A stretch of 64,000 bases of DNA from Longimicrobiales bacterium (GTDB taxonomy: Bacteria; Gemmatimonadota; Gemmatimonadetes; Longimicrobiales; Gaopeijiaceae), in the NCBI GenBank assembly GCA_965204735.1, contig OZ242008.1, positions 1,024,001 to 1,088,000 of the forward strand. Reading direction: 5' to 3'. Each line of letters opens with the position of its first letter. Within the stretch, counting starts at the first letter, position 1. This document shows positions 1 through 9,138 of this stretch, in pieces. The translations under genes were made by a program, and so were the position numbers. The notes under the pieces were generated by a model that saw nothing but the letters and a program-made list of their open reading frames with translations, was not told where the DNA came from and searched no databases.

Positions 1-1198
1 CCAGCAGCCGGTTGTAGCGGCTGCGACGCACCACCCGCCCAGCCTCGTCCTTCCGGTCGCGACCTTCGTTGCGGAAGTTGTGCGACTCGTCGATCACGAT
101 CAGGTCGAACGCGCCCCAGTTGAACTTCGCCAAGTCGATCGCGTCCGCCCTGCCCTGGTACCGGCTCAAGTCCGTGTGGGCCAGCACGGCGTAGCCGAGC
201 CGGTCCTCGACCAGCGGGTTGTTGTCGTACCCCGCCCACGACGTGTAGCGGACCCAGTTCTCCTTCAGCTTCTTGGGGCAGAGCACCAGCACGCGCTCGT
301 TGCGCATCTCGAAGAACTTCACGACCGCCAAGGCCGTCCACGTCTTCCCCAGCCCCACGCTGTCGGCAAGAATGCACCCGTTGTGCTCGAGCAACCGGTT
401 GATCGCGCTCACCGCGCCGTCCTTCTGAAAGCGGTAGAGCGCCTGCCAAACGGCCGTGTCGTGCAGGTGAACGTCCTGCACAAGTCCGTCTCGATGCCCC
501 CGCTCGTCCACCCTGTCCTTCAGGACGTGAAAGAGCGTCTTGTAGTAGACGAACTCGGGCGAGTAGTCCTTGCCCAGGCGCTCCAGCGCCGCCAGCACTT
601 CCTCTTTCGCATCTCGAGTGAGCCGCTCGTCGTGCCAGAGCGCGTCGAACCACTGAATCAACCGGGTCCGGTCGGCGCCGTCGCGAACCTCCAGGTTGAG
701 CTCGATGTTGGGGTTGGCGCCGAAGCCCAGGCCGCCCCGCGTGAAGTTGGAGCTGCCCACAAGTGCACCGGTGCCGCCGCCGGCGTGCTCGACATGATAC
801 ATCTTGCCGTGCAGAAAGTTGGCCTTGCGCACGGTGCGCACCTCCACCTTCTCCTTGATCCAATCAGCGCACGCGCGCGCAAGCGGCTTCTGCGTCAGTG
901 CGCCGCGCAGCTCCAAGGCGCCGTCGCGAGTCAGGCGGTAGGCCTTGTCCTCTCCCTCCGCCGGGTCCACCGACGCCGCGCCCGCCGGCTGGCCGTAGAG
1001 GAAGCGAAGGCGCCGGAGTCCCTCCAGCTCGGCCCGCAAGTCTCCATAGGCGTAGATCGTGAAGTAGGCCGACACGGCGGAGAGCGCGGCGTCGGCCTGG
1101 AGGCGGCCCCGCAGGAACTCGCCCACGGTGCGCACGCGGTTGTCCACGATGGCGTGCCCGTCGCGAACCGACCCGGTCGACCCCGGTTCCGTGCTCAT
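1..1198 (-). CDS. PLD-nuclease/SNF2-family helicase, N-terminal part (runs off the window)
   Basis: Own translation from ATG 1198 (MSTEPGSTG...). PLD-like LHGKMY...VGSSNFT, Walker A DSVGLGKT, and DExH motif IVIDESHNFR. Absent from the ORF track because it has no stop in the window. Confidence 0.85.
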   Translation of the reverse strand, partial: MSTEPGSTGSVRDGHAIVDNRVRTVGEFLRGRLQADAALSAVSAYFTIYAYGDLRAELEGLRRLRFLYGQPAGAASVDPAEGEDKAYRLTRDGALELRGALTQKPLARACADWIKEKVEVRTVRKANFLHGKMYHVEHAGGGTGALVGSSNFTRGGLGFGANPNIELNLEVRDGADRTRLIQWFDALWHDERLTRDAKEEVLAALERLGKDYSPEFVYYKTLFHVLKDRVDERGHRDGLVQDVHLHDTAVWQALYRFQKDGAVSAINRLLEHNGCILADSVGLGKTWTALAVVKFFEMRNERVLVLCPKKLKENWVRYTSWAGYDNNPLVEDRLGYAVLAHTDLSRYQGRADAIDLAKFNWGAFDLIVIDESHNFRNEGRDRKDEAGRVVRRSRYNRLL

Positions 1199-1718: not shown

Positions 1719-2953
1719 ATGAAGTCATCCACTGGCCGCTGGGTAACCGGCGACAACTTCTTCGATCGGACCGACGAGCTGGATCAGCTGGAGGCGTTGG
1801 TCCGGGAGGGCAATCACGTCTCCTCACCGGTCAGCGACGGATCGGCAAGACCAGCGTGGCCCGAGAGCTGGCCGCTCGGCTCGAGCGCGATCGGTGGAAG
1901 GTGATCTTCACCAGCATAGAAGGCTCAAGAGACGAGGAGGATGTGATCACCTCCATGGCTTCGGCGGCCCACGGCTTGATTCCCACTTGGTCGCGATTGG
2001 CGAAGCAGATGAGCCGATGGATCGGCGAACAGAGCGGCAAGATCAAGGAGATCGGCGCACGCGACTTCCACGTCAGGCTTCGCGCCAGGACTACCAAGGA
2101 TACTTGGCGACGCCAGGGCCACGAACTCGTGACGGCGTGCGCAGATCACTCCACCCCCGTCCTCCTGGTCGTAGACGAACTTCCGATCTTCCTGGCCAAA
2201 CTCCTCCAACGCGACCACGGCACCGAACGAGTGGACGGCTTCCTCACTTGGTTGCGCGAGGCGTTTCAGCTGGTCGAGAGACGCTCGCCCGCGTTGCTTG
2301 TTTCGGGAAGCATCGGGTTGGCTCCGCTGGTGCGCAGGCTACGCATCCCAGACCGAATCAACTATCTTCACACCGTGCGCCTGGGGCCGTGGAGCCGCGA
2401 AGTCAGCGTGGAGTGCTTGCACGCTCTCGCAGCCGAATACGACCTGCGGATGGAGGACCGAGCGGCAGACGCCTTGTACGACCGGCTGGGGATCGGCATT
2501 CCGCAGCACGTCCAGTCGTTCTTTGCGCGACTACGGCATTTCCCCGCCACGAGAGCGAAAGGAAGAGTTGCGATTGCCGATGTGGATGCGGTATATCGTA
2601 CGGAAATGCTCGGACCGGTTGGGCAAGACGAGCTGTCCCACTACGAGACGCGCCTACGGGAGGCGTTGGCGGACGAAACAAGCCACGAGATAGCAAGCAC
2701 GATCCTCGCTGAGACGGCTGCCACGGGAGCGTTTGTCGCCGGCTCTCGCAGTGCGCTCGAACGCTTGTACTCGAACCGGGTGGACGACGTGGCCGCTCGC
2801 ATCAGTGATGTTCTGGACATCCTGGTCCACGACGGCTACCTGGAGCACAGTACCGAGGGCCATCGCTTCTTGTCCAACTGGCTGAAGGACTGGTGGTCCA
2901 TGCGCTCGCGGGAATGCTACGTGACACTGGAACGCCGCAGGATTGGGTATTAG
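1719..2953 (+). CDS. P-loop/AAA (STAND-related) ATPase with C-terminal winged helix; 1-bp frameshift near 1820
   Basis: Starts MKSSTGRWVTGDNFFDR...GNHV. Restoring one C in gtctcctc gives LLTGQRRIGKTS (Walker A), which joins ORF 1856-2953 with Walker B LLVVDE. Confidence 0.8.
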
Positions 2954-2955
2954 CG

Positions 2956-5586
2956 ATGTCTGCCGTCGAGCGCACGATTCGGAAGTTCAACCCGGGAACG
3001 TTTCAGTCCGACCAGGATGTGATGGAGCAGTTCGTCGTGCGAAACCACGACCTGGCCCTGGCGCTGGAGGTTCTGCGCGACAACATCGACGCTCCCTCCT
3101 GCCAGCATGTCTTGGTCCTCGCCCCTCGTGGGCGCGGGAAGACAATGCTGCTCGCTCGGGTTGCCGCCGAGCTTCGCACGAACGCCGCGTACTCCGAAAA
3201 GCTCCTGCCCGTGCGGTTCATGGAAGAGTGCCATGAGGTGTTTGACATCGCGGATTTCTGGCTGGAGGCCCTCTACTACCTGGCCAAGGAATGCGCATCG
3301 CATACACCTGAACTGGCACGTGAGCTTGCAGGCGCGCACGGCTCCTTGGCCAGCGAGTGGCGGGATCCCAGGCTGCGCGACCGGGCTCGGGCGACCGTAC
3401 TTGATGCGGCCGACAGGATCGGAAAGCAGTTGGTCCTGATGGTCGAGAACCTCCAATCTCTGTGCTCGCATACCGGCGAAGACTTCGGCTGGGAACTCCG
3501 GGAAACTCTGCAAATGGAGCCTGGGGTGATGCTCTTCGGTACTGCGACAACTCGATTTGCAGCGTTGGACGATGCGCGCGAGGCGTTCTTCGAGTTGTTT
3601 CGAGAGATCACATTGGGTCCGCTCGACACGGAAGAATGCGGCCGACTCTGGCAGGCCGTGACCGGCGAGCAGGTCGAGCATCATCAAGCGCGACCCTTGG
3701 AAGTACTGACTGGCGGGAGCCCGCGCCTCTTGGTCCTCGTGGCGGACTTCGCCAGCCACCGCTCGTTTCGCCAGTTGCTGGAGGAGCTGGTCACCCTGAT
3801 CGACGACCACACAGAGTACTTTCGCGGTCATCTGGAGGCGCTTCCCAGGACTGAGCGCCGCGTGTACCTGGCGACGATCAGCCTGTGGCGGCCGTCGTCC
3901 ACGAGCGAGATCGCCGCTCGCGCCCGCATGGGAGTCCGAAACACCTCTTCCATGCTTGGCCGGTTGGTCGACCGCGGCGCCCTAAGCGTGCAGGGAACGG
4001 CGAGGAAGAGGCGTTACGCTGCGGCGGAACGCCTGTACTGCATCTACTACAAGCTTCGGCGCGAGCGAGACGAGGCGGCCGTCGTGCAGAGCCTGATTCG
4101 GTTCATGTCTCTGTATTACAACGGCAGCCGCACGGCGAAGGAGATGCGTCTGGCTCTGGCCGACGAGGTCGAGAAAAATCCCAACGTGCTGGCTGGCATG
4201 ATTCGAGCGTTGCAAAAAGACTTCAACGTCGGCCTCCTTGATCCCGAGGCGGCCGTCGTTGCGTACGACAAGATGATCGACGACCAGGTCGGACAGTCCG
4301 ATCCCGACAGCCAGGGCGCTGTGGCCCGCATTATGTCGAACAAGGCGGCGATGTTGTTTCACGCTGGCAACGCTCAGGGTGGTCGCATCGCCTACGACCA
4401 ACTCGTCGCACAATTCGGACAGAGCAGTGCACCAGAGATACGGGCGACCGTAGCCAGGGCGTCTTTCAACTTGGGGCTGGCGATGCAGAAATCCAACGAC
4501 TTGGAGGCAGCGATCAACGCATATGAGGACGTCGAAGCCCGATGCGGCCGCCTAGATGTCGTATTGCAGCACGACAGCGCCGCTTCCGTGTCGATGAGCG
4601 AAATCGTCGTGCAGGCTCTCTCGAACAAGGCTGGTGTCCTTATTCTGCGAGGAAAGGAAGAATCGGCTATGTCGATCTACGACGACATCGCTCGATACAT
4701 ACGGGACGCGAAGGCGTCGAAACTGCGTGTGCACATGGCGAGAGCCCTCGTCAACAAGGGCAGCATGCAGGCAGAGCTCGGCCTCTGGCCAGACGCGGTG
4801 GAGACGTGGAATCAGGTAGAGCGAGAGTTTCGCAACGACGATGGAGCAGCGGTTCAGCTCGAGGTTGCGCGGGCGTTGCATCGCATGTCTGCGTCTCAAC
4901 TGGTGCTACCCGGCGGATCGGCGGAATCGGCAATCAGGATCAGCGATCAAGTTGTCGTTCGATTTGGAAAGCGCTCGGACTTGGAGATGCGGACAGTGCT
5001 CGCGGAGTGTCTCGATGTGAAGGGCTCTGCGCTGGAAAGGCTGGGGCGCAAGCCAGAAGCACTTGACGTGTATCGTGATATGGAAACGAAGTTCGGGGAC
5101 GTCGTCGACTCTTCCGGAACGTCGGTCAGATGGGAGTCGATTTCGGCGCAGACCCGCATCCTGTACGAGACCGGCGACGTCGTAGCAGCACGGCAATCCC
5201 TCCAGACACTGTGTACGGCGACCGACACGACAAGCGACAGGAACGTCGTCGACATGTATGTGCTGGCGGTCACTCTTGCCGCTTCCGATCTCGTGAGCCC
5301 GGGCGAGCTGGCGGATGCGCTGGCGGCGGATCCTCAGATGGCAGCGACGTTCCAGCCCCTTCTGGTCGCCCTGCGTCGGCTGGCCGGGCAGCCGGTGCGC
5401 GCTCCGATTGAAGTGACGGAGGTCGCGCGGGACATCCGGGAGGAGATAGAAGGGCTGAAGGCCGTGCTGCGCGACGTGCGGGCGGGTACGGCCGAACCGT
5501 CCTCGCTGAACCGGTCGCTTGCCGAGAACCTGCCTCGCCTCGCCGTCCGTGCGCGCGGCCTTGCTCCCGAGCCGCCGGAAGCCTAA
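2956..5586 (+). CDS. STAND-like NTPase + winged HTH + TPR-like repeats
   Basis: ATG 2956, 2 bp after the previous stop. Walker A APRGRGKT, atypical Walker B LVLMVENL, TGGSPR (GxP), HTH TSEIAARARMGVRNTSSMLGRLVDRG, and repeated A-x-A-L-x-N-K-G/A helical units. Confidence 0.8.
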   Translation: MSAVERTIRKFNPGTFQSDQDVMEQFVVRNHDLALALEVLRDNIDAPSCQHVLVLAPRGRGKTMLLARVAAELRTNAAYSEKLLPVRFMEECHEVFDIADFWLEALYYLAKECASHTPELARELAGAHGSLASEWRDPRLRDRARATVLDAADRIGKQLVLMVENLQSLCSHTGEDFGWELRETLQMEPGVMLFGTATTRFAALDDAREAFFELFREITLGPLDTEECGRLWQAVTGEQVEHHQARPLEVLTGGSPRLLVLVADFASHRSFRQLLEELVTLIDDHTEYFRGHLEALPRTERRVYLATISLWRPSSTSEIAARARMGVRNTSSMLGRLVDRGALSVQGTARKRRYAAAERLYCIYYKLRRERDEAAVVQSLIRFMSLYYNGSRTAKEMRLALADEVEKNPNVLAGMIRALQKDFNVGLLDPEAAVVAYDKMIDDQVGQSDPDSQGAVARIMSNKAAMLFHAGNAQGGRIAYDQLVAQFGQSSAPEIRATVARASFNLGLAMQKSNDLEAAINAYEDVEARCGRLDVVLQHDSAASVSMSEIVVQALSNKAGVLILRGKEESAMSIYDDIARYIRDAKASKLRVHMARALVNKGSMQAELGLWPDAVETWNQVEREFRNDDGAAVQLEVARALHRMSASQLVLPGGSAESAIRISDQVVVRFGKRSDLEMRTVLAECLDVKGSALERLGRKPEALDVYRDMETKFGDVVDSSGTSVRWESISAQTRILYETGDVVAARQSLQTLCTATDTTSDRNVVDMYVLAVTLAASDLVSPGELADALAADPQMAATFQPLLVALRRLAGQPVRAPIEVTEVARDIREEIEGLKAVLRDVRAGTAEPSSLNRSLAENLPRLAVRARGLAPEPPEA

Positions 5587-8610: not shown

Positions 8611-8720
8611 CGGAGCTCGAGCGCCGGAACCGAGGCCGACCGCTACGCCAGCCCAAGTCCCGTCGCGGGCGATAGCCGTCCAGCGGAGCTCGAGCGCCGG
8701 CACCGAGGCCGACCGCTACG
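8611..8720. repeat. 37-bp direct repeat, two copies, 36-bp spacer
   Basis: CGGAGCTCGAGCGCCGG(A/C)ACCGAGGCCGACCGCTACG at 8611-8647 and 8684-8720. Confidence 0.85.
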
Positions 8721-9138
8721 GGTCGCCGCGAGCGTCGTCGCCGAGCCGCTCTTTCGCTCGCCGGACGAAGGCTTCCGCGCTCTCCACCGCCTCTCGCGCC
8801 TGCTGCTCGGTGAAGGACCTGAAGGGCACCCCTCCCGGCAGTCCGTTGGGGTAGCGGGAGGGGACGTAGTAGAGGTCCAGCACGCTCGCCGAACCCCGGA
8901 GGTCGGCCAACTCCGGCGCCTTGCCCGCGTAGCGGTCCACCAGCACGGTCACCGAATGCCCGAGGATCGTTCGGTCGCCCAGGTGGTACCCGATTGACTT
9001 GACGGCCTTCTCGGCGGCCTGCTGGGCGATGAAGCAGGCCTGGTGGTAGTACGCTTCGCGAAGCGCGAGACGGGCGAAGCCGAGATCGTTATCCGCCTGG
9101 AGCCACCACCGCCGCGCCTCGGCGGCGCCGTCCCACAT
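8716..9138 (-). CDS. HEPN domain protein (MNT-HEPN pair)
   Basis: ACFIAQQAAEKAVK, GHSV and YVPSRYPN motifs typical of the COG2250-type HEPN family. Confidence 0.88.
   Translation of the reverse strand: MWDGAAEARRWWLQADNDLGFARLALREAYYHQACFIAQQAAEKAVKSIGYHLGDRTILGHSVTVLVDRYAGKAPELADLRGSASVLDLYYVPSRYPNGLPGGVPFRSFTEQQAREAVESAEAFVRRAKERLGDDARGDP

Follow-up and report, generated by a model that had tools for sequence, protein, structure and literature searches.

The 64,000-nucleotide window analysed here, a stretch of contig OZ242008.1 from a Longimicrobiales bacterium, carries on its plus strand a pair of adjacent ATPase genes (gene 1 and gene 2, positions 1719 to 5586) behind a promoter that is overlapped by a palindromic operator. 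The pair is apparently a widespread, mobile two-gene unit that has gone undescribed. In the reading preferred here, to which a probability of roughly 45% is given, the two would form a self-regulated mobile cassette that defends against invading DNA: protein 2 would combine the roles of sensor, autorepressor and antitoxin, and the executor would be protein 1, whose action is costly or toxic.

A sequence-only reading of the same DNA had described two tightly coupled genes separated by 2 bp and had expected them to co-occur across genomes. Both points were borne out. The gene 1 stop lies at 2951-2953 and the gene 2 ATG at 2956, which leaves the 2-bp gap, and a scan of species genomes confirmed 192 gene 1 relatives; in the loci examined, the best 80 of the 192, gene 2 was found directly downstream of gene 1 in 80 of 80, with a 4-base overlap in 48 of the 79 loci that have an intact gene 1. 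At least 1610 gene 1 clusters were counted (8000 candidates scored), and the record titles of carriers name Latescibacterota, Acidobacteriota, Nitrospirales, Binatia, Gemmatimonadota, Gamma- and Alphaproteobacteria and others. Within the phylum of the window, the cassette was present in 24 of 301 genomes from four genera only, and within the genus the locus has been passed down by vertical inheritance. Sequencing runs with the label sponge metagenome contain 44-50% of the sampled words, and no RNA run was listed as a carrier of them, a listing that is silent on expression; most of the titled carrier metagenome-assembled genomes are presumably sponge symbionts, judging from their naming. Plasmids of Segatella and Clostridium carry distant pairs, that of Segatella standing behind a WYL regulator and near DUF262. 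Searches for close relatives found none in plasmid records (3 distant matches) and gave 0 matches in phage records, and neither gene matched a PHROGs profile.

Operator and promoter

Two tandem 16-bp palindromic boxes with a 15-bp period, a variant of CAACA-N4-TGTTG with CAGC half-sites, were located by pattern and matrix scans at 1582-1612, with a weak third box at 1567-1582. The sigma-70-like promoter TTGACA-17-TATCCT follows on the plus strand at 1609-1637, its −35 element being formed at the end of the second box. This promoter, which had already been recognised as near-consensus, matches the consensus at 10 of 12 positions, and 2 such sites were found compared to a shuffle mean of 0.1. 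The operator overlapping it had been missed; its conservation at the promoter supports the DNA-binding regulation that had been put forward as a possible role.

The same layout recurs in the family, where tandem CAACA-N4-TGTTG palindromes with a 15-base period stand upstream of gene 1 and their junction is TTGACA; many family promoters carry a further box beyond the −10 element. Tandem boxes were present in 71 of 87 upstream regions; none occurred in 86 control regions or in 1740 shuffles. This genome holds three cassettes, that of the window and two more complete pairs, and one of the latter, copy B, has its intact gene 1 at C1:645820-647052. A matrix whose training left out the copies of this genome placed the window operator third among the tandem sites of the 4.14 Mb, behind the promoters of the two sister cassettes at ranks 1 and 2. 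Across five further whole genomes, the pattern was confined to cassette promoters apart from one weak site and two orphan sites, both no more than 9 kb away from a cassette. Near-perfect orphan operators lie 7.5 and 8.5 kb from a cassette (L034 position 485 and L092 position 16497), and no gene 1 remnant was detected at these two. Two orphan operators examined as candidate regulon members (the second site of G122, and G001) turned out to be cassette remnants, and no wide regulon was found in ten genomes scanned by pattern (G000 also by matrix).

The motif accompanies the cassette from phylum to phylum, so its binder is likely encoded by the cassette. The winged-helix segment of gene 2 has a net charge of +5.1 and a conserved recognition helix, as against a net charge of −4.6 for that of gene 1, and protein 2 is therefore the likely autorepressor, its winged helix being the likely operator binder. 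Four CAGC-rich box copies share one recognition-helix variant, but their carriers are kin. Operator-like tandem boxes were also observed in the variable linker of an AddA-like helicase-nuclease gene (C1:836490-836550 of the same genome, L112; also L166 and L167). They are present in three of four genomes of the genus, with scores of 19.7, 18.6 and 26.1 compared to 4.5 in the fourth, and are homologous, in one frame and of the same variant as those of the window, with arms kept and spacers variable; a target in trans or an old insertion is possible.

The two ATPases and the order of gene loss

Gene 2 (2956-5586) is an open frame of 876 amino acids with profile matches to AAA and TPR families and nothing else. 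Its core (2956-4125, plus strand) combines a STAND/ORC-like AAA+ ATPase, starting at about residue 25, with a basic MarR-like winged helix (approximately 3880-4062), and is the predicted autorepressor and restraint on gene 1. Its motifs were found where the sequence-only reading had described them, as were those of gene 1: an intact Walker A (APRGRGKT, 3121-3144), an altered Walker B (LMVENLQ, 3436-3456), a GxP motif (TGGSPRLL, 3709-3732) and a helix-turn-helix (HTH, 3904-3978). That reading had considered the Walker B degenerate. It is instead a conserved family trait and not decay, since EN is kept in 84 of 86 relatives, and the Walker A GxGK[TS] is kept in 85 of 86; such a site would bind ATP and hydrolyse it poorly or slowly.

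The tail of gene 2 (4126-5586, plus strand), the likely sensor, consists of TPR-like repeats in a variable array, with TPR Pfam matches at residues 456-528, and has a C-terminal cap that recurs in the family (5356-5388 onward). Its role as sensor, proposed before, is supported by its fast change. Among 44 close pairs, the median identity was 0.68 for the tail, 0.86 for the gene 2 core and 0.89 for gene 1, and the ratio of nonsynonymous to synonymous substitution rates (dN/dS) was 0.38, 0.16 and 0.20, respectively. Whole-tail swaps were clear among these pairs, and gene 1 was still at least 90% identical across the swaps.

Gene 1, the predicted executor, has its main frame at 1820-2953 of the plus strand and encodes an ATPase_2/Orc1-Cdc6-like AAA+ ATPase with canonical Walker A (GQRRIGKTS, 1829-1855) and Walker B (LLVVDE, 2162-2179), a helical insertion and an acidic C-terminal winged helix. 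The family keeps the motifs GQRRMGKTS and hhhhDE, and PF01637 was found on about two-thirds of 120 gene 1 homologues among the matches listed, as counted by eye; the broken frame of the window gave AAA_16 and AAA_22 matches only, both below the cut-off. The predicted model of gene 1 (predicted local distance difference test score, pLDDT, 87) matched 2qen, 2fna and Orc1/Cdc6 and, more weakly, TnsC, and 2qen and 2fna were the top matches both by sequence and by fold. The model of the gene 2 core (pLDDT 89) matched Orc1, 2qen and CED-4, and the gene 2 profile matched ORC4 and, at residues 301-354, a MarR structure. Both proteins thus appear, from their models, to have Orc1/Cdc6-STAND-like ATPase folds. 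The profile search agreed with the earlier view that nuclease, TIR, SIR2 and protease domains are missing from the two proteins of the window, and no effector domain was found in 38 full-length gene 2 proteins (38 scanned of 82 extracted), all of which matched AAA and/or repeat families.

The ATPase of gene 1 had been described as intact, and this did not hold. Reading from ATG 1719 reaches a stop after 61 codons, and the ATPase frame takes over near 1818-1820; the 5' piece (first 34 codons, 1719-1820, plus strand) matches residues 1-35 of an intact paralogue and is out of frame with the remainder, and the next in-frame start, GTG 1856, lies downstream of the Walker A. The same allele was present, ungapped, in contigs of three studies, one of them possibly the window's own source (X1) and the other two of low depth (X3 and X4, 2.8 and 4), and a related strain (X5) has one extra base at the frameshift site that opens the frame. 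An assembly error is therefore an unlikely cause of the frameshift and was rejected, and gene 1 here, as read from these contigs, is a real pseudogene of a real gene. The cassette of the window is consequently likely disarmed in this strain.

When the 301 genomes were searched with gene 1 and gene 2 profiles and the loci were examined, 34 cassettes were found in the 24 genomes: 13 intact, 2 with both genes broken, 1 cut by a contig end, 16 (the window among them) with gene 1 frameshifted, truncated or deleted and the gene 2 core open, and 2 in the reverse state. Wherever gene 1 was intact in one of the 24 genomes, an intact gene 2 core was present as well, and 12 of the genomes had gene 2 alone. 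Both genomes with a reverse case hold another intact gene 2, and one reverse case has an altered Walker A. The targets for loss are similar in size, approximately 1.2 kb each, and at least 8 separate gene 1 losses were read by eye on the tree. A comparison of 15 with 2 losses gave p=0.002, and of 15 with 3, when a counter-example from Methylomonas was included, p=0.008. In 20 genomes of other phyla, picked for having one intact cassette, 17 further cassettes were scored: 10 were intact, 7 lacked a whole gene 1 and none was in the reverse state. The DNA itself was inspected for 10 of these copies and hit tables were used for the other 7; one weak distant ATPase match was set aside. Gene 1 remnants mostly had dN/dS near 0.1 (0.53 in one pair), so the losses are recent. 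Operator-only end states exist, and the gene 2 tail can be truncated beside an intact gene 1 with the core kept. Read from these states, the order of loss is gene 1, then gene 2, then the operator. The sequence-only reading had taken gene 1 as a catalytic partner, which fits this pattern less well than a costly part restrained by gene 2.

Other arrangements were observed as well. L047, L056, L057 and L060 have, 3-4 kb downstream, another gene 2 that lacks a gene 1 of its own, so that one gene 1 may serve several sensors. One 1092-residue record (P0127) fuses most of gene 1, without its Walker A, to gene 2 and may be a frameshift artefact. More distant pairs (G045:C1:1870594-1872848, G346:C1:712104-714481 and G339:C1:4490427-4492795) belong to deeper subfamilies with the same layout.

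Proposed mechanism and rival explanations

In the preferred reading, protein 2 dimers would bind the palindromes through the basic winged helix and block the −35 element, and the gene 2 core, with ATP bound and poorly hydrolysed, would keep protein 1 inactive in an ORC-like heteromer. Binding of a foreign protein to the TPR array would release protein 1 and the promoter together, which would create a positive feedback. Free protein 1 would then oligomerise and arrest the cell, most likely by draining ATP or by membrane damage like that of PifA, possibly through a conserved cationic amphipathic helix (residues 87-104). The restraint of protein 1 by protein 2 is proposed because the loss order is lopsided, and the TPR array is placed as the trigger site because the tail evolves fast. 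The cell-arrest step is the weakest part of the proposal and draws only on the likeness to PifA and on the amphipathic helix.

Several observations weigh against this reading. No toxic domain was recognisable in gene 1 by profile searches and fold comparison. The HTH of gene 2 scores nearly as high as the amphipathic helix of gene 1, and the position of that helix is the one at which Orc1 proteins touch DNA. Besides the 2 reverse cases among the 34 cassettes, gene 1 is open and gene 2 broken in L058 and on a Methylomonas plasmid, where only this locus and only the plasmid, respectively, were looked at, and when only tree-independent losses are counted, 8 against 2, the difference is not significant (p=0.11). 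The asymmetry might also arise without toxicity: frameshifts in gene 1 may have polar effects on the coupled gene 2, and losing a repressor is costly even where the product of the operon is harmless. Linkage to defence genes, which the sequence-only reading had proposed as a check, is present as an excess and is weak: 17 of 147 first neighbours matched PADLOC compared to 9 of 129 control open reading frames (p=0.22), and after likely housekeeping rows were dropped (three test, four control) the counts were 14 and 5 (p=0.09). That test used a crude home-made gene caller, PADLOC at 1e-15 and proteins cut to 520 residues; the neighbours were 147 of 152, three second gene 2 copies and two others being left out, and the controls came from 40 evenly spaced regions of seven carrier genomes.

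The alternative closest to the sequence-only reading, a non-lethal heteromeric switch, is rather unlikely. Protein 1 would be an ATP-driven remodeller lifting protein 2 off the operator or target, the output would be the TPR protein, mass-produced to sequester a phage or plasmid protein, and gene 1 would be lost first only since its loss leaves the cassette safely off. Such a switch is favoured by the lack of an effector in either gene and of a conserved third gene (the best neighbour family occurs in 8 of 80 loci), by downstream neighbours without strand bias (38 plus, 38 minus), by the gene 2 match to ORC4, a non-catalytic partner subunit, and by the fused protein on record, possibly an artefact. 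However, derepression alone would be a mild cost, yet none of the 24 genomes kept an intact gene 1 without the gene 2 core, and tails can be cut short next to an intact gene 1 with no loss of the core. It is less probable still that protein 2 is a stand-alone ligand-responsive STAND transcription regulator, with a logic like that of MalT, AfsR or GutR, with protein 1 as a dispensable modulator and with a few chromosomal targets such as the boxes in the addA-like gene. Between copies without gene 1 the gene 2 core has a dN/dS of 0.10-0.21, deletions bring the operator up to gene 2, and the boxes in the addA-like gene recur in three of four genomes of the genus, as a regulator would have it. The gene 1 losses are recent, so that this low dN/dS mostly predates them; moreover, the ten genomes scanned by pattern gave no regulon, gene 2 is later lost as well with orphan operators remaining, and wholesale tail swaps suit an arms race better than a metabolite sensor.

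A selfish addiction module without defensive benefit, in which gene 1 would be the toxin, gene 2 the antitoxin and repressor, and the TPR tail would vary for cognate specificity, is improbable. It would account for a loss order and an operator that fit a toxin-antitoxin layout, for the patchy spread over many phyla with several copies per genome and for the weak defence linkage. Gene 1 remains at least 90% identical across tail swaps, which argues that the tail is not tracking its partner, and a 3.9-kb cassette with a large repeat sensor would be costly for addiction alone; the plasmid and phage records, with 3 distant and 0 matches, also speak against it. Least credible by far is a replication or transposition machine, in which an Orc1- or TnsC-like heteromer would bind the boxes as iterons or as the ends of an element. 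The likeness of both models to Orc1/Cdc6, and of that of gene 1 more weakly to TnsC, speaks for it, but no recurring transposase or integrase neighbour was found across the 80 loci, the boxes overlap the −35 and −10 elements and lie on one side only, and the locus is vertically inherited in the genus.

Genomic context, related systems and significance

The cassette of the window borders the end of a defence island of lower GC content. A PLD-SNF2 helicase gene (PADLOC HKD+Snf2; 1-1198, minus strand) and an Eco57I-type methylase gene are followed by Schlafen/AlbA_2-RecG_C genes and an SbcC-like gene (window and L003). A hairpin-rich repeat of the GAAATGCTCG type with a 146-base period was observed at 1312-1547 and, in the same genome, at C1:1017879-1018083; the copies are 73% identical, lie approximately 7.3 kb apart and flank the PLD-SNF2 and methylase operon, and they are possibly cassette ends. 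No structured RNA was matched in 1150-1760 by Rfam at E 0.1. Farther downstream, a HEPN-domain gene (8716-9138, minus strand) lies beside an apparent small nucleotidyltransferase gene, and the two are probably, by their domains, an ordinary MNT-HEPN toxin-antitoxin pair.

The earlier conclusion that the pair matches no named system stands, as none was found in PADLOC, NCBIfam or PHROGs. Gene 2 resembles Avs/AVAST and bNACHT proteins in its STAND-like NTPase, winged helix and variable C-terminal TPR array. According to PMC13001434, Avs proteins are tripartite with an N-terminal effector. In contrast, gene 2 has no N-terminal effector, is paired with a second ATPase gene and has its own operator, and no Avs profile of PADLOC 2023 or NCBIfam matched it; Avs membership was rejected on the lack of effector and profile match. 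Like the cassette, the nSTAND2 systems are mobile operons whose two genes encode STAND modules, of which one is catalytically impaired, and a hetero-multimer is predicted for them (PMC8195603). In their inactive copy the NTP-binding motifs are eroded and a GT4 or HEPN effector is attached (PMC8195603), whereas here the Walker A is intact in both proteins, only a Walker B is altered, the TPR array is fused and there is no effector; membership was ruled out, with Walker A kept in 85 of 86 relatives and neither GT4 nor HEPN present. Membership in MADS (mad8) was likewise rejected, since only residues 10-119 matched (E 1.7e-08) and there were no conserved neighbours. ATPase_2 proteins (PF01637; PDB 2qen and 2fna) and Orc1/Cdc6-ORC, which combine AAA+ and winged helix, are the best matches of gene 1 and among the best of the gene 2 core. 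However, 2qen and 2fna are uncharacterised single proteins of 16-18% identity, for which the literature searched describes no paired TPR partner or operator.

PifA of the F plasmid is described in PMC13001434 as a P-loop NTPase that lacks transmembrane helices and brings about abortive infection by making the membrane leak. The cassette, in contrast, does not belong to the KAP family by any profile match. The separate autorepressor of PifA is PifC. Type II toxin-antitoxin operons resemble the cassette in having a palindromic operator over their own promoter and perhaps in having a DNA-binding partner that is kept when the other gene is lost first; they differ in that both cassette genes encode large ATPases and the putative toxin comes first. 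On their trait that the toxin is not kept alone, the cassettes gave losses of 16 against 2 and 7 against 0, but with four counter-examples and possible polarity.

By analogy, plant paired NLRs (receptors that combine nucleotide binding with leucine-rich repeats) of the RRS1/RPS4 type may come close to the cassette in having a linked sensor and executor, a sensor that represses the executor, a dispensable sensor P-loop and a sensor with a DNA-binding domain; according to PMC13725568, the sensor represses an autoactive executor and only the executor P-loop is needed. The likeness is functional and orthology is not claimed; the plant executor uses a TIR domain for signalling and gene 1 has none, and the cassette sensor appears to repress transcription of the pair. 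A description of the pair was not found in the literature searched, with subscription papers and preprint supplements beyond reach, and passages of 10.64898/2026.01.04.697583, 10.64898/2026.10.19.760177, PMC13092281 and PMC13236601 contain no such pair. The cassette is apparently a real, widespread and undescribed variant of paired STAND systems that would, by analogy, work most like plant paired NLRs and toxin-antitoxin operons.

A bolder proposal, which is doubtful, sees in the cassette the bacterial equivalent of plant paired NLRs, made of two Orc1/Cdc6-like ATPases. Its sensor would unite the roles of pattern receptor, transcriptional autorepressor and antitoxin, its executor would kill or arrest the cell without any known effector domain, and horizontal transfer would have carried the cassette, with TPR sensors that can be exchanged, across many phyla within one host-associated community. 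If true, this would be an effector-less route to NLR-type immunity, would show that bacteria too use the logic of a sensor that represses its executor, as plant paired NLRs do, here wired directly to transcription, and would assign a role to the ATPase_2 proteins, which are uncharacterised. The large family, with its many gene 1 clusters, would then be a library of swappable TPR sensors.

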